64,000 nt of DNA from Thermococcus sp. JdFR-02 (GCA_002009975.1 MTLP01000007.1:32001-96000); one strand, 5' to 3'; positions 23,071 through 40,693 are shown, counted from the first letter of the stretch. Numbers and translations are program-made. The notes: generated by a model from the letters alone, not told the origin.

Positions 23071-23447
23071 CTATTTCTTTACCAAATATCTCTCTATTAG
23101 TTCTACAGCTTTTTCTGGCTTTACAAGGCTAACTTCCATTTTAAGCTCGCTTTCAATAAAATCTCTAACCCAACTATTTTTTAGTGGATCGCTTTTAAAG
23201 GGATAAATAAGGATTAATCTTTTAAAGCCAGCACGATGAGCTTTTAAAGCATTGTATAGCACTCTTTGCTTTATCCACTTGTAAGAATTCTCAAATTCAA
23301 TTGCAAGTATCTTTTCTTCATCCTTTCCAAGAATAACCAAATCTATCCTTGCCCCATCTTCTGTATAAAACTCCTTATAGCTCTTAAGCCCCTTATGTTG
23401 CACTGAGCCTTTATCTCTCTCAAGAGGGTTTTAACTTTGATTTTCAT
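23071..23447 (-). pseudogene. PD-(D/E)XK-like small protein with a frameshift near 23400 (pseudogene or sequencing error)
   Basis: GGAGG-preceded ATG 23447 gives MKIKVKTLLREIKAQC, which joins QHKGLKSYKEF...RIDLV...AIEFE after adding one base. Confidence 0.6.
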
Positions 23448-30185: not shown

Positions 30186-30983
30186 GTGAGGGATGAGTTT
30201 AAAATTATTGTTGAGTTTTTTAATGTTCAGCGGAGTGTTTTCTTTAGTTATCGTTGGGATGTTGTGAGCTACTTTATTGGGCTTTTGATTCAGATCATGG
30301 TCATGGGGATTTTTGCGAGTCTTGTAAGTATAAATGTAAACATTGCAAAATATGGGACCACGAGTTTTCTCCAATTCTTTCTTATTGGTTTTATTGTGCA
30401 CAACCTAATTTTCCTTCCAAGGGGGAGTTTGTCAAGATTTATTGTTGGACGGAGTTTTCCAATGCTTTATGCTTCACCCACAAGTATGCTCACAATATTT
30501 CTCGGAGTAAACGCATGGAACATTGTATGGAGCTTGCTAATTTTAGCTTTAATAACTACGACTTTTGTCCTCTTTTACAAATTAACACTTCACTTGAACT
30601 CTGGAGCAATATTGGTAATTTTGAGCGGTTTTGTTCTAATATTTGCCCTTGATTTGTTCTCTGCGGGATTTAAGGTTGCCACAAAGGCAAGACAAGACCC
30701 CTTAAACTGGTTTTTAAACATTACTTCACAACTTGTGAGTGGCTTGTACTTCCCACCTGAAGCTCTCCCTTGGTGGCTTCAACCAATATCAAAAATCCAT
30801 CCTGAAAGATATATTCTTGAAATGGCGCGCTTAACAATGGGAGGAGGATACTCCCTAAGCCAGATTTATCCAAGCTTAATCAACTTAACTATAACCACCT
30901 TGGCAATGCTCCTTATTGGGTATATAACCTTTAAATGGGGTGTGAAAAAAGCTATGCAACTTGGAACCCTCGGTCACGTTTGA
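30186..30983 (+). CDS. ABC-2 type exporter permease
   Basis: 6 TM; SGLYFPPEALPWWLQPISKIHP motif. Confidence 0.9.
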   Translation: MRDEFKIIVEFFNVQRSVFFSYRWDVVSYFIGLLIQIMVMGIFASLVSINVNIAKYGTTSFLQFFLIGFIVHNLIFLPRGSLSRFIVGRSFPMLYASPTSMLTIFLGVNAWNIVWSLLILALITTTFVLFYKLTLHLNSGAILVILSGFVLIFALDLFSAGFKVATKARQDPLNWFLNITSQLVSGLYFPPEALPWWLQPISKIHPERYILEMARLTMGGGYSLSQIYPSLINLTITTLAMLLIGYITFKWGVKKAMQLGTLGHV

Positions 30984-30992
30984 GGTGATAAA

Positions 30993-31985
30993 ATGATTGA
31001 AGCAATGAACTTGACAAAGTATTATCCACCACCATTCAAGGGTTTCCTCGATTTAAAGAGTCTTAAAGACTTCTTTGGAGCACCAAGAGAAGAAATCCCG
31101 GCTCTGATTGATTTGAACTTCAAAGTTAAAGAGGGCGAAATTTTTGGACTTTTAGGTCCCAATGGAGCTGGGAAGACCACTTTTTGTAAAATTGCCAATG
31201 GATTATTACTTCCTACTCGAGGGCAATTACTAATTAATGGTTATGATAGCGTCAAAGAGCACAAAAAAGTTGCCAAAGATATGTTTACAGTTTTCACTGG
31301 GGAAAGAGATATGTGGGGAATTTTTCAATGGCGCTTAAGTATTTACAAGAATTTACGCTTTATTGCGCGTTTGTGGAAAGTATCTGAGAGTGAAATTAAT
31401 AAGCGGATAAATTATGCTCTGGATTTGCTGAATTTAAAAGAGAAAAGGAATGAGTGGTATCAAAAGCTTTCGGCAGGGATGAAGCAGAAGGTGTATATTG
31501 CTTCCGCATTAGTAATCCAACCAAAAGTCCTTATTTTAGACGAGCCAACAGTGTTTTTGGACATTATAACTAAGAGTGAGATTCACAATGCGATTTTTGA
31601 ACTTGTGAAAGAATTTGGGACTACTGTTATTCTGACCACGCACGATTTGCATGAAGCTGAGAAGTTAAGTGATAGGGTTCTGCTTTTCAGCAAGAAGCCA
31701 ATTCTTGAAGGAAAGCCTGAAGAAATTAGCAAAAGACTTGAAGTTGAGTTCGATAAAAAGGTTGTTGCTCTTGTTAAGGGGAATGTTAAGTGTGATTTTG
31801 GGTTTAAAGTGCAGTGCTTCTCTAAGGACAATGTTACGAGGATTGTAGCTTACTTACGAGAAAGTGAAGTTGCTCAGTTCTTAGATGGATTATCTAAATA
31901 CAAAATTCTAAGTCTTAAAGTTGAAGAATTAACACTCGAAGATGCATTTCTATTAATTTTCAATCATTCTAAAAAAGTAGAATAG
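30993..31985 (+). CDS. ABC exporter ATP-binding subunit
   Basis: GPNGAGKTT, LSAGMKQK, ILDEPT, TTH. Confidence 0.93.
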   Translation: MIEAMNLTKYYPPPFKGFLDLKSLKDFFGAPREEIPALIDLNFKVKEGEIFGLLGPNGAGKTTFCKIANGLLLPTRGQLLINGYDSVKEHKKVAKDMFTVFTGERDMWGIFQWRLSIYKNLRFIARLWKVSESEINKRINYALDLLNLKEKRNEWYQKLSAGMKQKVYIASALVIQPKVLILDEPTVFLDIITKSEIHNAIFELVKEFGTTVILTTHDLHEAEKLSDRVLLFSKKPILEGKPEEISKRLEVEFDKKVVALVKGNVKCDFGFKVQCFSKDNVTRIVAYLRESEVAQFLDGLSKYKILSLKVEELTLEDAFLLIFNHSKKVE

Positions 31986-32016
31986 AGTTAATTACGTAGA
32001 GTATTACTACTAGGCA

Positions 32017-32030
32017 GAAAAATTTATAAA
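32017..32030 (+). promoter_or_regulatory. BRE/TATA promoter of the radical SAM gene
   Basis: GAAAAATTTATAAA about 35 nt upstream of ATG 32065. Confidence 0.6.
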
Positions 32031-32064
32031 TATGAAGATATATTCCTATATATAGTGAAAATTC

Positions 32065-33522
32065 ATGAAAGCAAATGATAAAAAGCTCGAGATTTATATA
32101 TTTACAGTTGAAGATAAGTATTTTCTCCTTTCTCCTCCAACTGGTATAGTTTTTGAAATTGATAGAAAAACTTACGAGTTTTGTAATACTGTTAGTGTAT
32201 TCGGGTGGAGTAAGAGTAAGGAAGAATTTGTGAGGAAATATTCTGAGAGTGATTGGGATGCTTTAATTAGTGAGATTAAGACTGATGAAACTTTGAACAA
32301 AATCTTTTTTGGAGAAAAACCTAAGCCCAACCTTCCTCTTGGAAGTATTAAACCAAAACTCTCAAGCTTATCTTTGAATGTTATGGAGGATTGCAATTTC
32401 GCTTGTGTTTACTGCTATGGTAACGCAGGCACTTATAACACTCCAAACACTAAGATGGATTTTGAAACTGGGAAGAAAGCCATTGATCTTCTTATAAAGG
32501 AAGGAAAGCAAGTTGTTAATATCAGCTTTTTTGGTGGAGAGCCTTTGCTTAACTTTGCACTTATTCAAAAGCTCGTTGCTTACGCTAAAGAAAAGGCTAA
32601 GGAGCATAATAAAACCATCAACTTCAGCATAACAACAAATGGTTATCTTATTAACGATGAAGTTATTGACTTCTTCCTTGAGAACAACTTCACGGTAACA
32701 TTGAGTTTTGATGGCCCAAAGGAAATTCAGGATTATAACAGATCTCTGAGGAGTGGTGCTGGAACTTTTGATGTTGTTTCAAAGAATGCCAAGAAAATGC
32801 TTGAAAAAGGAGTCAAGGTTAGTGTTAGGACCACAATCTTACCAAGCCAGCTTGAAAAGTACTATGACATCTACCGCTTTTTTGTAGATTTCGGGTTTAG
32901 AAGTGTCCACTTGGAAATGGCAACAATAAACGAAAAGCCCACGGAAGAACACATTGCGATAATCAAGGAGGCTCTGGAAAAAATTGCAAAGGATGAGTTA
33001 GGACACTACAAGGAAAAGGGGATAGTTTACACTAAGTTAAGGGATATAGTGAGGAGCATCTACTCCACGGCAGTCAAACAGTATCCTTGTGGTGCAGCGA
33101 GGACTTACTTTGGAGTCTCTGCTGATGGAACTATCTACCCCTGTCACAGATTTGTTGGAATGAGCAATTTTATTGTTGGAGGTGTTGATGACTTCAAGTG
33201 GGAGAACGAGTTTATTCAAAAGATCCTCCACTTCACTGTGGACAAGAGACCCTACTGTAGGGATTGTCCAATAAGGATGTACTGTGGAGGAGGATGTATT
33301 TACAACAACTTCTACTATAATGGCGACATTTTCAAGCCTGATGCGTTTCATTGTGCGTATATGGAAGAGTTGTTTAAGTGGGGTGTTTGGCTCTACTCAA
33401 ACCTTGATGAGGATTGGTTGAATAAGGCTTTTTCACGCTCACCCCGTGAAGGGGTGAGGGATGAGACACAAGCCGATGAATCCGAACAAAAAAGAAAGGG
33501 AGGTGATGGAAGTGGCGTTTAG
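32065..33522 (+). CDS. RRE + radical SAM + SPASM peptide maturase (PapB-like, putative ranthipeptide synthase)
   Basis: N-terminal PqqD/RRE-like beta-beta-beta-alpha segment (YIFTVEDKYFLLSPPTGIVFEID); CNFACVYC; FFGGEPLL; SITTNG; SPASM CGAAR...IYPCHRF...CRDCPIRMYCGGGC...HC; adjacent Cys-rich peptides. Confidence 0.88.
   Translation: MKANDKKLEIYIFTVEDKYFLLSPPTGIVFEIDRKTYEFCNTVSVFGWSKSKEEFVRKYSESDWDALISEIKTDETLNKIFFGEKPKPNLPLGSIKPKLSSLSLNVMEDCNFACVYCYGNAGTYNTPNTKMDFETGKKAIDLLIKEGKQVVNISFFGGEPLLNFALIQKLVAYAKEKAKEHNKTINFSITTNGYLINDEVIDFFLENNFTVTLSFDGPKEIQDYNRSLRSGAGTFDVVSKNAKKMLEKGVKVSVRTTILPSQLEKYYDIYRFFVDFGFRSVHLEMATINEKPTEEHIAIIKEALEKIAKDELGHYKEKGIVYTKLRDIVRSIYSTAVKQYPCGAARTYFGVSADGTIYPCHRFVGMSNFIVGGVDDFKWENEFIQKILHFTVDKRPYCRDCPIRMYCGGGCIYNNFYYNGDIFKPDAFHCAYMEELFKWGVWLYSNLDEDWLNKAFSRSPREGVRDETQADESEQKRKGGDGSGV
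33421..33511 (+). repeat. Precursor-upstream element, copy 1 (overlaps the rSAM 3' end)
   Basis: Similar to 36631-36704; contains hairpin CTCACCCC-gtgaa-GGGGTGAG. Confidence 0.6.
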
Positions 33523-33664
33523 AAAACTGAACAAAGAAAGAGAGACAATATCACCACTATGTGCGTGGGTTGATATCTGCATAGACTACGACTATTGTGT
33601 TTGGGACGATTGTGGAAAGTTTGATGTATGTATATATGACAACTGCCTTGCGGATACTGATTAA
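33512..33664 (+). CDS. RiPP precursor peptide 1 (50 aa; 6 Cys, 9 Asp)
   Basis: GGAGGTGA SD, GTG start: MAFRKLNKERETISPL-CAWVDICIDYDYCVWDDCGKFDVCIYDNCLADTD. Confidence 0.85.
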   Translation: MAFRKLNKERETISPLCAWVDICIDYDYCVWDDCGKFDVCIYDNCLADTD

Positions 33665-33688
33665 AACTTCATACAGGAGGTGTTACAA

Positions 33689-33862
33689 ATGTTTAAAAAG
33701 CTTAATAATAAAAGCCAAAAGACCCAACCATCTCCTGAATGGTGCATTGACATCTGTATAGGTGGCGATGTATGTGGAGCATGTGATACAGCATGTGATC
33801 AGAATGACAGTTGTATTACAGATGGATGTATATTTGACTGTTATTTAGACATTACACCCTGA
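33689..33862 (+). CDS. RiPP precursor peptide 2 (57 aa; 8 Cys, 8 Asp)
   Basis: GGAGGTG SD, ATG: MFKKLNNKSQKTQPSPEW-CIDICIGGDVCGACDTACDQNDSCITDGCIFDCYLDITP. Confidence 0.88.
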   Translation: MFKKLNNKSQKTQPSPEWCIDICIGGDVCGACDTACDQNDSCITDGCIFDCYLDITP

Positions 33863-33876
33863 AGGTCTCGTTGTTA

Positions 33877-33889
33877 ATTTTTTATTTTT
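33877..33889 (+). terminator. Oligo-T archaeal terminator after the precursor genes
   Basis: TTTTTTATTTTT tract just downstream of the precursor 2 stop. Confidence 0.45.
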
Positions 33890-33905
33890 ATAACCTAAAC
33901 AAAAT

Positions 33906-34793
33906 ATGGTGAGGAGAATGCTCAGAGTATTCATCAAAAAAGCACTGTATGATAGAACTGTAATTCTTGGTGTTTGTCTTTTTCTCATATTCTACTTTAA
34001 TATCCTTTTGGGAGTGAAGAACTCTACTTATTTTGAAAGCTGGCAATACTCAAAACTTGTTCTTAACTATTTTAGCGACATGCCTTCAATAGTTATTTTA
34101 ATCTTTGCAAGCATTTGGGGTTCAAGAAGCATAAACACCGAGTCTTTGCCATTGATTTTAAGTAAACCCCTTTCTCGATATAATTACTTACTTACAAAAG
34201 CCATGTCCTCTTTTTTATTCTTTTTAGCTTTGTCTCTCTTGTTATATCCAATTTTATTACTTTCTTCTCTTGCTTTTGGGACCTCTATCAGCTTAAACCT
34301 GAGCTTTGTACTAATATTTGCTCTATTTCTCTCTGCTTTCTATTCTATTGGTATGCTCATCTCAACTATAACTTCTCCTAAAAAAGCTCCTGTAGTAGCA
34401 CTCATTATAGTTATCTTATTTGTATACCTAGAATCTACATTTCACCATACAATTGAAAAAGAAGTGCTGAGGATGTACAATATTACCCAATATGATATGG
34501 CAAGATATTTTGCTACTAACGAAAAAATCTTTTGGAAAATTTCAAGTGACATATTTGCTCTTAAAGTCAAGAAAAGCTGGGAACAGTTTTTTAATCCTTT
34601 CACCCACTTTAGAATTTTGTTAACATATATAATGAGCAATGGAAACTTATGGAATTACTACCATTCTCCTGAAATATATTCTATATTCCAAATGCCTATA
34701 AAAGCGTGGAGAGCCTTGGGTTTTCTAATTCTCGATACATTATTACCATTAGTTATAACATTAAAAATCTTTAATCAAAAAGATTTAAGGTGA
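33906..34793 (+). CDS. ABC-2 type exporter permease
   Basis: LILSKPLSRYNYLLTK motif; C-terminal FNQKDLR. Confidence 0.85.
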   Translation: MVRRMLRVFIKKALYDRTVILGVCLFLIFYFNILLGVKNSTYFESWQYSKLVLNYFSDMPSIVILIFASIWGSRSINTESLPLILSKPLSRYNYLLTKAMSSFLFFLALSLLLYPILLLSSLAFGTSISLNLSFVLIFALFLSAFYSIGMLISTITSPKKAPVVALIIVILFVYLESTFHHTIEKEVLRMYNITQYDMARYFATNEKIFWKISSDIFALKVKKSWEQFFNPFTHFRILLTYIMSNGNLWNYYHSPEIYSIFQMPIKAWRALGFLILDTLLPLVITLKIFNQKDLR

Positions 34794-34797
34794 TAAC

Positions 34798-35715
34798 ATG
34801 TGGTCGTTCAAGCTTGAAGCAAAGAACAGCTTGAGAACTAAAAAGTTTTGGTTAACAATAGTGCTGATCTCTCTAGTGTACGTTATAGCCTTTAGGGAGA
34901 TAAAGGACAACCTTAAAGCTACTACTAACCTCCAGGGGGTGTTGACTTTCAGTCTAATAGGCTATATACTTGCGAGTGCTTTTTTGTTCATAGGGTTATA
35001 TGTCCTTATTTTAGGAGCTACATCAATCAACGGTGACCTTGAAAATGGAACGGTTCAGATATCCTTAAGCAAGCCTGTTAATAGAATACAGTATCTAATC
35101 GGAAAGTTTCTTGGACAGTTCGTTTCAATCATTGTTGCACTTCTTTTCGCTACACTCCTTTCTCTTGTCATAACAAGATACTACAGCATATCCATAACAG
35201 TCAAAATAATTTCTGATCTTACAATAGCCAATGCTCTCACGCTCCTCTCAATGCTTCAGCTACTCGCACTCGGCTTACTTATCTCAACCTTCATTCGCTC
35301 TCAGAACACTGCTATCAGCGTTGTTCTCATCCTCTTCCTTGTTACCGGATTGGTGGCACCTCAAATAGTCGACAGCATGGCAAAAGACAGAGCTAGAGAA
35401 GAGTTCCACATCAAAACACCTGAAGATGCCATGAAGATGCCTGTTGAGGAACGCAACAAGTATCACCAACGTCAAATAGAACTCCAGAAGGAGTACCACT
35501 TAAGATACCTGTTCTACATTCCTCAAGTGCTCCTTGAGGATATAGTGATAGATATGCAGAGAACCACTTTTATCAAGGGGAAGATCAGAACAGAGTATAT
35601 CAGGGCTTGGGACGCCATCAAGAACAATCCTTTGAGGGTCTCTCTTCTTGTGGGACTAACCTTGGTCTATCTAATCATGGCAGTTTTTCGCTTTGTTAGA
35701 ATGGACCTGAGGTGA
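34798..35715 (+). CDS. ABC-2 type exporter permease
   Basis: DLENGTVQISLSKPVNRIQYLIGKFLG; C-terminal FVRMDLR. Confidence 0.88.
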   Translation: MWSFKLEAKNSLRTKKFWLTIVLISLVYVIAFREIKDNLKATTNLQGVLTFSLIGYILASAFLFIGLYVLILGATSINGDLENGTVQISLSKPVNRIQYLIGKFLGQFVSIIVALLFATLLSLVITRYYSISITVKIISDLTIANALTLLSMLQLLALGLLISTFIRSQNTAISVVLILFLVTGLVAPQIVDSMAKDRAREEFHIKTPEDAMKMPVEERNKYHQRQIELQKEYHLRYLFYIPQVLLEDIVIDMQRTTFIKGKIRTEYIRAWDAIKNNPLRVSLLVGLTLVYLIMAVFRFVRMDLR

Positions 35716-36635
35716 CAATTGTGTTGAGAATTGAGAATCTAATCAAGATTTACAAGGATATTAGGGCTTTGGATGGCTTGAATTTGGAGGTTAAAGAGGG
35801 GCAGATTTACGGATTTTTAGGACCTAACGGTGCCGGGAAGACAACAACAATCCTGAGCATTCTTGGAATGATATTCCCGCAGAAGGGCAGGATAGAAGTG
35901 CTAGGTGAGGAAGTCTTCAACGGAAAGTTCGATGAAGAGAAGCTCATCAAAGTCAAGTACATGATTGGTTACATGCCTGAGGACGCTACACTCTGGGATT
36001 TTTTAACGCCAATGCAGACGCTTGACATTATTGGTGAAGCTTTTAAAATGTCCAAAGCAGAGAGGCAAAAACGCTCAGAGGAGCTTTTAAAGCTCGTCGG
36101 CTTATGGGACGTCAAAGATAAAAAAGTTGGCAAGCTCTCAAAAGGAATGCGCCAGCGTTTATTGTTGGCACAGGCGCTCATTAATGATCCAGAACTTTTA
36201 ATCTTGGACGAGCCCATGAGCGGATTAGATCCAAAAGGTATTGCTGAATTCAAAGAGTTGATTAGGCAGTTCAACAAGGAAGGAAAAACAGTCTTCTTTT
36301 CATCGCACATCTTAGCTCATGTCGAAGAAATCTGCGACACTGTTGGCGTTATTGTTAAAGGAAAGCTGAGAGCCCAAGACTCTTTGGACAATATTAAAAA
36401 AGAGTTCTTAAGACGGGCTGGCCACACGATACTGATTGAGACAAACAAACCCATCCATATAGATCTTGAGGGAGTCAAAGTTGAGGTTATTGGTACTAAT
36501 AAATACAGGATTATCACAAGCAAAGATGTTAGGGAAGAACTCCACGACTTGATAGCAGTTCAAAACGCAAAAATTCTAACAATGCAGATTAAAGAGCCGA
36601 GCTTGGAAGAAATATTCCTAAAAATGATCGAATAA
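35712..36635 (+). CDS. ABC exporter ATP-binding subunit
   Basis: GPNGAGKTT, LSKGMRQR, ILDEPMSGLDP, SSH. Confidence 0.93.
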   Translation: MTIVLRIENLIKIYKDIRALDGLNLEVKEGQIYGFLGPNGAGKTTTILSILGMIFPQKGRIEVLGEEVFNGKFDEEKLIKVKYMIGYMPEDATLWDFLTPMQTLDIIGEAFKMSKAERQKRSEELLKLVGLWDVKDKKVGKLSKGMRQRLLLAQALINDPELLILDEPMSGLDPKGIAEFKELIRQFNKEGKTVFFSSHILAHVEEICDTVGVIVKGKLRAQDSLDNIKKEFLRRAGHTILIETNKPIHIDLEGVKVEVIGTNKYRIITSKDVREELHDLIAVQNAKILTMQIKEPSLEEIFLKMIE

Positions 36636-36704
36636 AGTTTTTCATGTTCATCCCGTGAAATAATGAGGCATATGCTGATGAGACAGATTTAAGGGAGGTG
36701 GGGG
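36631..36704 (+). repeat. Precursor-upstream element, copy 2
   Basis: aataaagtttttcatgttcatcccgtgaa...atgaggcatatgctgatgag...aagggaggtg aligns with copy 1. Confidence 0.6.
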
Positions 36705-36829
36705 ATGAAGTTGGAGATTTTAAACAAAGAAGAAACCCTTAAAGGAATGCTACCAAACTCCTGCCTACTCCAGCAGACTGGATTTGTTGGTGGCTAGAGG
36801 ACTACTGTGATCTTCACGAGCCATATTGA
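36705..36829 (+). pseudogene. Third RiPP precursor, frameshifted
   Basis: GGGAGGTG SD; MKLEILNKEETLKGMLPNSC, then the -1 frame reads PTPADWICWWLEDYCDLHEPY*. Confidence 0.6.
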
Positions 36830-36929: not shown

Positions 36930-37976
36930 TTGAACCAGAGAGTATTTTTAACAAGTGTTAAAAGAATATCAGAGATTGCAATAATCTCTATTTTAATTCT
37001 GCTTATCCTGACATCACTGACTGTTGAAGCCAAGAAGAAAACCCTTATTAACAATAACATGAACCTGCCTCTTTTCTTATGGTACGCTTCAAACAAAACT
37101 GCACAAGAGGAAGCCAAAGTACTTGGAATGAATCAAACAGAGTACTTAGAGTACGTAATCCTTAGAAAATTCGGTTTGAACAAACCGCTCTATGTCTTGA
37201 TTCCCCAACAAATTAAAAGCGCGATAACTTATATTGGGCAGAATAGGGAGTATATACTCATCTCCACTTTTAGAACTGTTCTTCTTCTCCTACTCGTTCA
37301 AGGTTTTATCTTGGTATTTGGTCTGCTCATTGGAGTTCTAGCTGGTTATAAAAGAGACGGCTTTTTGGATAAGCTAGTTTCAACATTGGCGCCTGTGTCA
37401 AACGGAGTTCCCAGCTGGTGGATTGCGGGCATGTTACTCCTTATTCTTTCTCTCAAATTTAATCTATTTCCCGCTTCGGGATATATGTCAATACCTCCAA
37501 AGACGGGTCTTTATTATTATTATCTTGATATTGCTAAGCACTTAGTTCTCCCATTTTTAGCCCTCTTTCTAGCTCGTTTCTGGGAATATGCTTTTATTGT
37601 TAGGAGCTTAATTTTTGAGGAGTTCAAAAGGGATTATATACTCGTTGCTGAAGCTAAAGGTGTTCCAAAAAAGAAAATTTTATGGGGACATGCCCTAAGA
37701 AATATCCTTCCCTCATTCCTTACCTTCACAACATACAACTTTCTCGACCTGCTCACAAGTGTCTTTGTGATTGATATAGTTTTCGATTTAAGAGGACTTG
37801 GGACTTTGTTAAGGATAAGCTTTTTCAGAACACTTGTAAGTGCTAGGGGAATTTTCACAACATTGAGACCAGAGCTTTTCCTTTCTATTTGTATTATTAT
37901 CATGATCCTGTACTTGGTTGTATCCGCAATCTTAGAGACCCTCTACATTTACCTCGATCCAAGAATTGGGGGATAA
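36930..37976 (+). CDS. DppB/OppB-like ABC permease
   Basis: GVPSWWIA and DYILVAEAKGV (EAA loop) motifs; YLDPRI C-terminus. Confidence 0.85.
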   Translation: MNQRVFLTSVKRISEIAIISILILLILTSLTVEAKKKTLINNNMNLPLFLWYASNKTAQEEAKVLGMNQTEYLEYVILRKFGLNKPLYVLIPQQIKSAITYIGQNREYILISTFRTVLLLLLVQGFILVFGLLIGVLAGYKRDGFLDKLVSTLAPVSNGVPSWWIAGMLLLILSLKFNLFPASGYMSIPPKTGLYYYYLDIAKHLVLPFLALFLARFWEYAFIVRSLIFEEFKRDYILVAEAKGVPKKKILWGHALRNILPSFLTFTTYNFLDLLTSVFVIDIVFDLRGLGTLLRISFFRTLVSARGIFTTLRPELFLSICIIIMILYLVVSAILETLYIYLDPRIGG

Positions 37977-37980
37977 GTAA

Positions 37981-39306
37981 ATGATTGAAGAAAAATCCAT
38001 TAAATATGGTTTCCTGATCATAACCTCTTTCATCCTTTTATCTCTCCTAACTCCCTTTATAGTTCCTGAGGAAAGGGTTAAGTACTGGAACGATGGTAAT
38101 TACTGGATTAAGAATCCTAAACTTGCGCCACCCAAGTGGTACAACTATTTTACAAGCAAAGACAGAACACCAACTGAGATTCTCACTCCAAAACAAAAGA
38201 AAATTGAGAATTTTAATTCTTTAAGGATGTACAATTTCTCCTTTGAATATGACTACACTTATTATGTTCCTCCTCAAGATATTTGGATAAATCTTAATGT
38301 TAATTCGAGCAATGCACTTTATGAGGTTTCCTTTATCCGTCCAGATAGGATCAATATTCTGCTCCTTCAAGGGGAAGTCCAAAAGGGAGAAATCTCCCTA
38401 AAAACACGTCAAGAAGTCAGAAAAACTGTCATGAACTTTGCAATGGAGAAGCTTGATGTAAAGACATTCAACCAGCTCACCTTCAATCCCTTTGAATACC
38501 TTTTTTCATCCAAAAGCGGAAATCCTCTGAAGGGTGTTTATAGAATTGATGTTGTTATTTACTCTTTTAATCAGAGTGATGTTATTGAAGAGCCGAGCAT
38601 TAGAATTGTGGGAAGTTGCTATGGGATTTTAGGGACTGATAATATGGGAAGAGACTTATTTGTGGGTTTTATATGGGCTATGAGGAATACACTATTTTTA
38701 GCTTTATTTGTCGCTCTCTTCACAGTGTTTTTTGGAACACTCTTTGGTTTAATAACTGGTTACATAGATTCAAGATTAAGTAAAGCTCTTGAATTTGTAA
38801 ACAAAGTTTTCCTTGCTCTTCCTGTTCTTCCAACTGCTTTAATCATAACATATCTCATCTCGGTTCAGAGTGTGGGTAAGAGCGTGGAGCTTTCAACATT
38901 TGAGTTTTCAATTATACTGAGTGCATTACTTTGGGGAAAACCTGCACGGAGTATAAAGGCAATTGTTGAACAAGAAAAGGTTCAAGAATACGTTACTGTT
39001 GCTGAAAGCATTGGTGCAAGCAAATTCTATATTCTAAGAAGACATATATTGAAAAAAGTCCTCCCTTACTCTTTTGCAGTTCTCTCAATAACAGTTCCAA
39101 AGGTCATTGTTCTTATTTCGCTTTTTGGATTTTTTGGTATCGTTCCTGGGATTAATTGGGGCTCTTTCATGGCTGAAGCATTGGAAAGGGGTGGATTTTA
39201 TGGTGGTGTTTGGTGGTGGATAATTCCACCAGGATTAGCAATAGCCTTGATTGGGATTGGCTTCGTCTTGATAAATAAGGGAATAGAAAAATGGTTAGGA
39301 ATATAG
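37981..39306 (+). CDS. DppC/OppC-like ABC permease with a large extracellular insertion
   Basis: LGTDNMGRDL, EYVTVAESIGAS, WWWIIPPG. Confidence 0.85.
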   Translation: MIEEKSIKYGFLIITSFILLSLLTPFIVPEERVKYWNDGNYWIKNPKLAPPKWYNYFTSKDRTPTEILTPKQKKIENFNSLRMYNFSFEYDYTYYVPPQDIWINLNVNSSNALYEVSFIRPDRINILLLQGEVQKGEISLKTRQEVRKTVMNFAMEKLDVKTFNQLTFNPFEYLFSSKSGNPLKGVYRIDVVIYSFNQSDVIEEPSIRIVGSCYGILGTDNMGRDLFVGFIWAMRNTLFLALFVALFTVFFGTLFGLITGYIDSRLSKALEFVNKVFLALPVLPTALIITYLISVQSVGKSVELSTFEFSIILSALLWGKPARSIKAIVEQEKVQEYVTVAESIGASKFYILRRHILKKVLPYSFAVLSITVPKVIVLISLFGFFGIVPGINWGSFMAEALERGGFYGGVWWWIIPPGLAIALIGIGFVLINKGIEKWLGI

Positions 39307-40620
39307 CTACGCTAGCATTTCTTTAACTTCCTTAGCTATCTTTTCAATTTCAATGCTCTTCTGTTCTCCGCTTATCATGTCTCTAATAGTTGCTTTTCCT
39401 TCAGCCAAATCTCTCTTTCCAAGTATTATCACGAGAGGTATTTCAACTTTATCTGCATATTCTAAAGCCTTTCTGAGCTTTCTCCCTTGTAACTCATACT
39501 CTGCTTTAATTCTTTCTTTTCTTAGCATTTGGGTTATTTCAATAACTTTCTTTTTAATTTCAAGCTCTTTTCCAATATAAACAACCAAAACGTCAGAGCT
39601 TAATCTAAGGTTAGGTAATAGACCTTTGCTTTCTAAAATTGGGATTAAACGTTCAATTCCAATGGCAAAGCCTGTTGCTGGGGTTGGTTTTCCTCCAAAG
39701 ACCTCAATTAAGTTGTCATATCTTCCACCGCCACCAATTGAACCTATCCCCAAATCGTTTTCTGCAATGGCTTCAAAAACTATGCTTGTGTAATAATCAA
39801 AACCTCTCGCAATTCCAAAGTCAATTAAAGCATAATCATAAACGCCGTAAGCCTTTAAAAGTTCAAAAAGCTCTTCTATTTTCTTCAGCTCTTCTTTAGC
39901 CTCTTTGCTTGTAAAAAGCTCGTAAGCTTTTGGTAAAACTTCATCTGGTTTTCCTTTAAGCTCAATTAGAGAGAACACCTTTTCTATTGCATCATCATTT
40001 AAGCCGAAGTCTTTTAACGCTTCTATAAACTCTTCTCTGCTCATCTTATCTTTCTTATCAATCAAGCGCATTAAGCCAATATCATCTTTAACGCCAAGCA
40101 TTTTAGCGAATTCGTCAAGGAGAATTCTATCGCCAATGTTTAGTGTGAAATCTTTTAGCCCAGTACTCAAATATGATTCAATCATTAAGGCAATAACCTC
40201 AGCATCGGCTTCAATATTTGGTGAACCTATTAACTCTACCCCAGCTTGCCAGAATTCCCTTAAGCGACCGCTTTGTGGTTCCTCATAGCGGAACATGTTC
40301 GTTATATAGTACCACTTTACTGGTTTTGGAGCGTTTTGAAATTTATTTACAAATAAACGAGCAACACTTGAAGTTAAATCTGGTCTTAGAGAGACATCTC
40401 TGCCGCCTTTATCTTTAAATGCATACAGCTGTTTTACGACCTCTTCACCGCTCCTCAATTGGAAAAGCTTCGTATATTCAAAGGTTGGTGTTAGGATTTC
40501 TTTAAAGCCATAAACCTCAAAAACTTCTCTTATTCTCTCAAATACATATCTTCTTTTTACCATATCCTCTGGAAGCAGATCCCTTGTTCCTTTGACTCTC
40601 TCAATTTGTTGCTTTGCCAT
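39307..40620 (-). CDS. hisS: Histidine--tRNA ligase
   Basis: KGTRDL, LRPDLT, RYEEPQSGRLREFWQ, RGFDYYT, GGGRYD. Confidence 0.98.
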   Translation of the reverse strand: MAKQQIERVKGTRDLLPEDMVKRRYVFERIREVFEVYGFKEILTPTFEYTKLFQLRSGEEVVKQLYAFKDKGGRDVSLRPDLTSSVARLFVNKFQNAPKPVKWYYITNMFRYEEPQSGRLREFWQAGVELIGSPNIEADAEVIALMIESYLSTGLKDFTLNIGDRILLDEFAKMLGVKDDIGLMRLIDKKDKMSREEFIEALKDFGLNDDAIEKVFSLIELKGKPDEVLPKAYELFTSKEAKEELKKIEELFELLKAYGVYDYALIDFGIARGFDYYTSIVFEAIAENDLGIGSIGGGGRYDNLIEVFGGKPTPATGFAIGIERLIPILESKGLLPNLRLSSDVLVVYIGKELEIKKKVIEITQMLRKERIKAEYELQGRKLRKALEYADKVEIPLVIILGKRDLAEGKATIRDMISGEQKSIEIEKIAKEVKEMLA

Positions 40621-40693
40621 TTCTCCCACCTAAAGGCATAAAGCATAGAGCAGTTAAAAATTTTGTTAATACCCTTTTGTCACATTAACAAAG

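Follow-up and report, generated by a model that had tools for sequence, protein, structure and literature searches.

Gene content of the locus

The 64,000-nucleotide (nt) stretch of Thermococcus sp. JdFR-02 DNA analysed here (GCA_002009975.1, MTLP01000007.1:32001-96000; the window, with positions counted from its first letter) contains a tight co-directional set of genes on the plus strand, from 30186 to 36635, which is probably a ranthipeptide-type cluster for a peptide that is made on the ribosome and modified after translation (RiPP), with a radical S-adenosylmethionine (SAM) enzyme maturing two precursors. The enzyme gene (32065-33522) encodes a 485-amino acid (aa) radical SAM/SPASM peptide maturase with an N-terminal domain resembling the RiPP recognition element (RRE), as judged by Pfam, NCBIfam, PDB and fold comparisons. 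It is followed directly by two small open reading frames (ORFs), each preceded by a Shine-Dalgarno (SD)-like site that can be read in the sequence. The first, precursor peptide A (P0001; 50 aa, 33512-33664), begins with a GTG at 33512, 5 nt past GGAGGTGA (33499-33506), a motif that also precedes the orthologous peptides, and has an 11-nt overlap with the stop of the maturase gene. The second, precursor peptide B (P0002; 57 aa, 33689-33862), begins with an ATG at 33689, 6 nt past AGGAGGTG (33675-33682). Two ATP-binding cassette (ABC) systems flank this core, one at 30186-31985 and the other at 33906-36635. A preliminary description of the locus, made from the sequence, had already pointed to the RRE-bearing enzyme with its CNFACVYC motif and SPASM cysteines, to the two small ORFs with basic leaders (beginning MAFRKLN in A and MFKKLN in B) and Cys/Asp-rich cores, and to the two ABC systems, and we found all of these where it had placed them. 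It had carried the cluster on to 36829, however, and the last cluster gene ends at 36635.

The maturase and its precursor peptides

The radical SAM motif CNFACVYC occupies residues 110-117 of the enzyme and provides the three cysteines of the CX3CX2C signature (C110, C114 and C117), and the SPASM region holds seven further cysteines (342, 360, 398, 401, 407, 411 and 430) that align with cysteines of the thioether synthase CteB. Pfam detects both domains (Radical_SAM PF04055, 90.2 bits; SPASM PF13186, 22.1 bits with a cut-off of 21.5), and all ten cluster cysteines, three of the radical SAM motif and seven of the SPASM region, are invariant in 81/81 aligned homologues. The alignment, the tree and the residue profiles given below were made with these 81 of the 120 listed matches; those dropped were rows covering less than about 75% of the query and some others near the end of the list. 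When the enzyme was compared with solved structures, CteB came out as its closest relative in the PDB (E = 2.6e-58, residues 17-443), and because the alignment runs from residue 17 it takes in the N-terminal domain. In contrast, the anaerobic sulfatase-maturating enzyme (anSME) in the PDB is matched at E = 2.7e-18 and only from residue 97, so the RRE is additional relative to anSME. We obtained the same picture from the fold: with an AlphaFold model built from the 81 homologues (mean predicted local distance difference test score, pLDDT, of 90.5), CteB chains rank first in a Foldseek search (target-normalised template-modelling score 0.86-0.90), and the model contains an RRE-type domain at residues 11-82, with strands at 11-15, 18-23 and 28-32 and helices at 34-58, 61-73 and 75-82.

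The top curated NCBIfam matches of the enzyme are PapB (279.9 bits), a nif11-type family (276.7 bits), QhpD and the SCIFF maturase (254.8 bits each), and the best of them are all peptide or protein maturases that form thioethers of the non-alpha type. The score with the PapB equivalog family NF047865 (about 279.9-281.1 bits) is below the family cut-off of 340, and thus the enzyme is PapB-like rather than a member of the PapB family. It also falls short of the SCIFF maturases (TIGR03974, 254.8 bits against a cut-off of 425), of QhpD (TIGR03906, about 254.5-254.8 bits against 453), of the anaerobic sulfatase maturases (TIGR03942, 130.4 bits against 349) and of CefB (NF038107, 119.8 bits against 600). 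The preliminary description had chosen the anaerobic sulfatase maturases as a test of its reading, and the enzyme does not group with them (130 bits against 280 for PapB, and E = 2.7e-18 for anSME against 2.6e-58 for CteB).

Six active-site proximity residues have been mapped on CteB, namely F112, F152, T186, S210, H363 and Q364, according to PMC10288494. When we placed them on the window enzyme through the CteB alignment and the 81-sequence alignment, the corresponding residues were Y118, F156, T190, S214, H361 and R362 (YFTSHR). The SCIFF-named maturases of the set all have FFTSHQ (8/8), as in CteB, and the single PapB-family-named sequence in it (P0072) has YFTSHR, identical to the window enzyme; no PapB or QhpD member scoring above its cut-off was found in the control genomes. 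YFTSHR also occurs in most of the named Thermococcus homologues, two paralogues having Q at the fifth position. In PapB, an arginine found by alignment is described as needed for cross-linking and as a residue that may recognise a carboxylate (PMC9413430); PMC12373016 makes no mention of it. A FastTree phylogeny of the 81 sequences, a quick method that left several long branches, assigned the window enzyme to a clade of 15 rows (support 96), which contains every one of the six rows named Thermococcus or Thermococcaceae and is apart from the 30-row SCIFF clade.

We searched 97 genomes of the family and found a match to the enzyme at E <= 1e-50 in 16 of them; nine (9/97, its own genome counted) have orthologues at 68-87% identity, distributed over three genus-level groups. 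The preliminary description had proposed comparing neighbourhoods across genomes, and the comparison bears it out: one to three small Cys/Asp-rich ORFs lie directly 3' of the maturase gene in all nine orthologous loci (9/9), giving a total of 18, each with an SD-like site. Since 18 SD-preceded peptides follow the orthologous enzyme in every one of these loci, the small ORFs are not chance. This survey took in the orthologous loci and left out L004-L012, where the enzyme matches are weaker or partial. The 18 peptides start with [M/V]-(x)-F-[KR]-[KR]-L and have a Cys/Asp-rich tail. A pattern scan of genome contigs with the enzyme as query returned 168 matches, of which only one proved to be a relative, at the locus whose enzyme is 87% identical to that of the window (L013).

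In the window, peptide A consists of a basic, Cys-free 16-residue leader with F-R-K-L-N and a core of 34 residues (6 Cys, 9 Asp), and peptide B of a basic, Cys-free 18-residue leader (M-F-K-K-L-N...) and a core of 39 residues (8 Cys, 8 Asp). Across the 18 cores, an Asp or Glu stands at +3 or +4 of 97 of the 113 Cys, against a mean of 39.5 (sd 4.6) in shuffled sequences, where 0 of 2000 shuffles reach 97. For the window peptides alone the counts are 6/6 in peptide A and 6/8 in peptide B. The register is mixed: in peptide A, four of the six Cys have Asp at +4 and the other two at +3 only, and in peptide B, Asp is found at +4 for three of the eight Cys, at +3 for three and at neither position for two. 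Comparison of peptide A with its L013 copy showed 58% identity, with 6/6 Cys and 8/9 Asp kept, and the one Asp lost is at +2 from a Cys for which another Asp lies at +4; for peptide B the identity with the same relative is 68%. When all the peptides are aligned, the conserved positions are those of the leader (F, L and a Pro that precedes the first Cys) and part of the Cys/Asp columns, with variation elsewhere.

A structural prediction for the enzyme together with peptide B passed, its median run having an ipSAE of 0.82 and the best-scoring of three controls 0.00; of 80 solved complexes 58 attain the mark applied to this score, as do 2 of 110 mismatched pairs. Contact agreement between runs was at least 23% and the partner pLDDT was 34-36. 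The confident contacts join peptide residues 1-7 with enzyme residues 27-33 (a strand), 35-36 and 70-77 (in helices) of the RRE, and also with 332-335 and 441-452.

A profile built from the 18 peptides retrieved seven proteins from a 5.8-billion-sequence set and 11 representatives from an exhaustive 1.84-billion set. All of them are 42-67 aa long, and those with names are annotated "hypothetical protein" in Thermococcus. Of the homologues with a source name, those nearest to the window proteins belong to T. celericrescens (enzyme and peptides) and T. thermotolerans (peptide). No precursor family of Pfam or NCBIfam covers the 18 peptides, and none of them (18/18) matches a SCIFF precursor. The "Cys-every-fifth" family CefA (NF038108) is weakly matched by 3/18, with a best E of 8.8e-5, and by 0/2 of the window peptides.

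Two sister lineages of the enzyme occur in Thermococcus at about 37-46% identity, and they too are followed by small SD-preceded peptides, of other types. One of these types (L022 and L027-L029, in G048, G047, G053 and G046) is 48-50 aa long, is SD-preceded, lies 3' of paralogues of about 40% identity and has four Cys, each with an Asp or Glu within the next 3-5 residues; the enzyme beside it has Q instead of H at the fifth proximity position. The other (L002, L003, L023-L025 and L030, in G020, G001, G097, G069, G068 and G083) lies 3' of paralogues of 37-46% identity and consists of one to four tandem peptides of 31-42 aa starting M-R-A-[LM]-[VT]-K, with two Cys, the first having an Asp at +4 or +5 and the second being directly followed by Glu. 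The peptides of the sister lineages have it too, and thus the whole Thermococcus radiation shares the pairing of Cys and an acidic residue. The genome of JdFR-02 contains a further place of this general kind (contig C1, about 131.8-134 kb; L039), where an SD-preceded 38-aa ORF with the motif C-G-L-C-G-F-C-G is located just upstream of another radical SAM/SPASM-like gene (466-495 aa), followed by an ABC ATPase. It may be a second RiPP-like locus.

Transporters and genomic setting

The upstream ABC system is formed by an ABC-2-type permease of 265 aa (30186-30983; PF01061, 25.7 bits, just below the cut-off of 26.9) and an ABC ATPase of 330 aa (30993-31985; PF00005, 97 bits; DrrA-like, 202 bits, below the cut-off of 312). 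The downstream system contains two ABC-2 permeases, permease 1 of 295 aa (33906-34793; PF12679, 56 bits), which has an alternative ATG start at 33918 preceded by GGTGAGGAG, and permease 2 of 305 aa (34798-35715; PF12679, 156 bits), followed by an ABC ATPase of 307 aa with a DrrA-type C-terminal domain (35712-36635; PF00005, 109 bits; PF13732, 29 bits). Permease 2 has weak matches, far below cut-off, to the peptide-export permeases SagH (E = 1.3e-4) and PmtD (E = 9.5e-4), and the downstream ATPase matches DrrA (233.8 bits) and a lantibiotic-protection ATPase (184.7 bits), both below cut-off. Judged by gene family, the two systems would export the product and might also shield the producer from it.

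The upstream pair adjoins the maturase gene in six of the eight other orthologous loci, lies about 5 kb away in L032 and is absent in L013; its permease homologues are 76-78% identical, and the ATPase homologues (71-72%) travel with the permease. A 131-aa ORF near the contig end (197-592) stands in the place of the pair in L013, and it has no counterpart among the window genes at 20-44 kb. The downstream set of permeases plus ATPase is complete in five of the eight loci; in L033 the permeases are present without an ATPase ORF, and in L035 the contig ends. In L032 (G072), the space between the upstream ABC pair and the maturase gene (about 4.1-7.9 kb) is taken by a 227-aa ABC ATPase together with an FtsX/MacB-type permease of 651 aa. 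Since L032 has this MacB/FtsX-type system upstream and no downstream ABC-2 set, the transporter module appears to be exchangeable. Some transporter is nevertheless kept beside the enzyme and the peptides in every locus where the contig is sufficient.

No gene of the cluster varies more than that of downstream permease 1, which is replaced by forms of 505-661 aa in other genomes. When we compared the window with the 87% relative, the identities were 57.5% and 41.8% for permeases 1 and 2, 83% for the ATPase and 86.7% for the maturase; permeases that have diverged in this way would fit the tracking of a variable peptide. The related clusters also contain extra ORFs of 218, 252, 409, 382 and 347 aa, without a Pfam match and without a counterpart in the window. 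Those of 218, 252 and 409 aa separate the precursor genes from the first permease in L037 (6382-7798) and L034 (6320-7549, minus strand), and they are possible candidates for accessory or processing proteins.

The entire block, both ABC systems included, stands in G100 and G089 between an alaS homologue and a homologue of the window gene at 23071-23403, which in the window are immediate neighbours, and in three other genomes the block is found beside phosphate-transport genes. Because the flanking genes differ among genomes, the block is kept as a unit but at differing sites. Its patchy occurrence could result from horizontal spread or from repeated loss. The GC content of the cluster (0.33-0.43) has no clear difference from that of the flanks, and thus composition shows no sign of recent transfer. 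No tRNA gene was found between 26000 and 42000 of the window, by which a tRNA-linked island was ruled out as a candidate.

The preliminary description had placed the cluster in an island between a racemase operon and hisS. The upstream neighbour is indeed an Ala/Ser-racemase-family gene (948 bits, cut-off 639), itself preceded by the amino-acid carrier gene agcS. On the other side, however, two Opp/Nik-like permease genes (36930-39306) separate the cluster from hisS (39307-40629, minus strand). Four other genomes, among them neither G100 nor G089, also have distant homologues of this permease pair (27-34% identity) 3' of the cluster, which may reflect a loose association or a coincidence. Just 3' of peptide B, a T6-A-T5 tract can be read (33878-33889), and it may be an archaeal oligo-T terminator or attenuator, a TATA-like part of a promoter for the downstream transporter genes, or both. 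A scan for bacterial-type promoters and terminators, unsuited to archaea, gave counts at shuffle level (21 against 19.9 expected and 7 against 5.1). A look-up of sequencing runs listed none of RNA, a result with no bearing on expression.

Predicted product and known systems

For the cross-link chemistry, the leader removal and the biological role we infer the following scheme. Both precursors would be translated, and the leader (F-K/R-K-L-N ... P) would bind the RRE of the radical SAM/SPASM enzyme, as the complex model suggests. By analogy with the enzyme family, and with PapB and CteB in particular, SAM would be cleaved at the CX3CX2C cluster and the resulting 5'-deoxyadenosyl radical would take a hydrogen from the C-beta of Asp. 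The Asp carbon would then be joined to the sulfur of the Cys 3-4 residues upstream, whose thiolate would be held at auxiliary cluster I; the S-to-C-beta linkage is assumed from PapB. One small thioether ring per CX2-3D unit would give up to six rings in A and about six to eight in B. The rigid, strongly anionic product would be handled by the two ABC-2-type systems, one of which probably serves export, and the other either export or self-protection, and the leader would be removed by an enzyme encoded outside the cluster.

Several points weigh against the ranthipeptide reading. The enzyme is under every curated cut-off, those of PapB (340), SCIFF (425) and QhpD (453) included, and the Pfam PqqD/RRE model has no match to it at E <= 0.01. 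PapB-named comparators amount to one sequence, itself named by a hidden Markov model, and R362 only presumably occupies the position of the carboxylate-linked PapB arginine. Because the genomes are related, the 18 peptides do not count as independent trials. The complex model is confident for peptide residues 1-7 only, with an uncertain partner fold, and a pass in such a prediction can stem from likeness to an already solved complex; since the solved CteB structure reportedly includes a bound leader peptide, the pass may partly reflect the known CteB complex. A Pfam scan of the window and of the extra ORFs of the related clusters found no leader peptidase encoded in the cluster. Moreover, the product would have about 8-9 free carboxylates, unlike typical cationic antimicrobial peptides.

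A sactipeptide-type product, in which the Cys sulfur is linked to the alpha-carbons of Asp or of neighbouring residues, appears unlikely to us. Regiochemistry cannot be fixed by sequence alone, some sactisynthases are nearer in sequence to ranthisynthases than to other sactisynthases (as stated in PMC10288494), and RumMC-type and other sactipeptide models also match the enzyme. However, these matches are weaker (101 bits) than the closest curated ones, all to non-alpha thioether formers; the proximity profile YFTSHR equals that of a PapB-family protein and is one or two changes away from CteB, and the strict +3/+4 register from Cys to Asp fits a side-chain carboxylate as acceptor, as in PapA. 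We give even less credit to other radical chemistry (epimerisation, C-C or C-O links) or to peptides without cross-links, whose Cys and Asp would be metal or Fe-S ligands of an exported metal-binding peptide. The cores, with 17% Cys and 19% Asp, have a composition able to chelate metals, for one member peptide there is a weak match (E = 0.003) to a generic family of Cys-rich proteins, and SPASM enzymes carry out many different reactions; yet the nearest characterised relatives of the enzyme all make Cys thioethers, and the Cys-X2-3-Asp pairing, which metal binding does not need, is the most conserved feature of the core. It is highly improbable that the enzyme, in the manner of QhpD, acts on an intracellular protein or on a cofactor subunit, with the ABC systems as unrelated neighbours and no secreted natural product: the QhpD model does score 254.8 bits, transport direction and cargo are predicted from family only, and the transporter set is partly missing or exchanged in three of the eight related loci (L013, L032 and L033), but the score is below the QhpD cut-off, no dehydrogenase partner genes lie near the cluster, a transporter is retained wherever the contig is long enough, and the block stands as a single unit between conserved genes in G100 and G089.

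The host is presumably hyperthermophilic, and under the ranthipeptide reading the product could be an archaeocin, a signal or a metal ligand. A fuller picture, which we offer with considerable doubt, is that of a polyanionic, cage-like peptide, secreted and vent-stable, with six to eight rings closed by thioethers, acting on cells nearby as an archaeocin with its own immunity transporter or in metal capture, made by a thermostable maturase tolerant of CX2D and CX3D, with fast-diverging permeases that track the fast-diverging cores. If this fuller picture is true, the product would be the first radical SAM RiPP natural product from a hyperthermophilic archaeon. The cluster offers a test case, a conserved enzyme-substrate pair with a clear prediction of -2 Da per CX2-3D unit. 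Since PapB is under development for peptide macrocyclisation, the present enzyme would be a candidate thermostable relative, its thermostability being presumed. The small self-contained family and its sister lineages would also lend themselves to work on the joint diversification of leader, core, enzyme and transporter.

The concept of an archaeal ranthipeptide cluster is not surprising, and the cluster itself is uncharacterised. Archaeal ranthipeptide clusters have already been counted by genome mining in PMC12144867, which gives only haloarchaeal lanthipeptides as characterised archaeal products, and PMC13635244 describes ranthipeptides as "only recently reported in archaea". Our literature search, which reached few subscription journals, found no characterised radical SAM peptide from the Thermococcales, in agreement with the preliminary description, and no description of the present family; the supplements of PMC12144867 and PMC10288494 may list the cluster or its enzyme in their mining sets. 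Within Thermococcus, sboA/albA/albC loci of T. celer and T. nautili are described as a radical SAM thioether RiPP cluster, from bioinformatics only (bioRxiv 10.64898/2026.07.27.741052). These are subtilosin-like, however, and differ from the window in the AlbA-type sactisynthase lineage, the precursor and the species. The CrpA/CrpC system of Methanococcus voltae shares with ours an archaeal RRE-radical SAM-SPASM enzyme, shown to install ranthionine links, with C-X-X-Q/D motifs in the CrpA substrate (PMC13692751). CrpC nevertheless belongs to TIGR04463, with which the window enzyme scores only 95.5 bits against a cut-off of 525, and CrpA is a large repeat protein; the characterisation of this enzyme dates from 2026, and the survey of the same source left out proteins below 100 aa.

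QhpD/QhpC resembles the window system in that Cys-Asp and Cys-Glu thioethers are installed and an RRE is used (PMC13692751), but its substrate is an enzyme subunit, and here we have a pair of small peptides with no dehydrogenase genes nearby. With CefA/CefB the likeness is in the peptides, several relatives of the window peptides having a Cys at every fifth residue; the window's own peptides, in contrast, have no CefA match, and the literature search found no relevant paper on this "Cys-every-fifth" family. The clostridial CteA/CteB system (thermocellin/SCIFF) provides, in CteB, the closest solved structure both in sequence and in fold, including the RRE and the cluster cysteines. The SCIFF leader presumably has a K-x-L-N-type element similar to that of the window leaders. 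The SCIFF maturases, however, form a separate clade with F and Q at proximity positions 1 and 6, where Y and R are found here, and the window peptides match no SCIFF precursor model.

The closest parallel is the freyrasin system PapA/PapB of Paenibacillus polymyxa. In CX3D motifs, PapB joins Cys to the C-beta of Asp, and in vitro it tolerates CXnD with n = 0-6 (PMC9413430). An RRE-radical SAM-SPASM enzyme is common to both systems, PapB is the top NCBIfam match of ours, and all six proximity residues are the same as in one PapB-family protein. The likeness extends to the precursors: PapA has repeated Cys-Xn-Asp units (PMC9413430), and its basic leader, where K-x-[IL]-N is followed downstream by E-P, is resembled by the FKKLN...EP layout in Thermococcus; the start of the PapA leader given in the preliminary description agrees with the leader printed in PMC10739248. 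The ranthipeptide-like (freyrasin/PapAB-type) reading of that description is supported, each of its refuting conditions that could be run having come out in its favour, with the qualifications that the score is below 340 and that the register is a mix of CX2D and CX3D instead of six CX3D. Further differences are the archaeal host, the two precursors with 6 and 8 Cys and an unrelated core sequence, the two ABC-2-type transporter sets and a predicted product known from genes alone. Read from its genes, the cluster is thus one predicted to work like the freyrasin system, and by curated score it stands outside the PapB, SCIFF, QhpD and CefB families.

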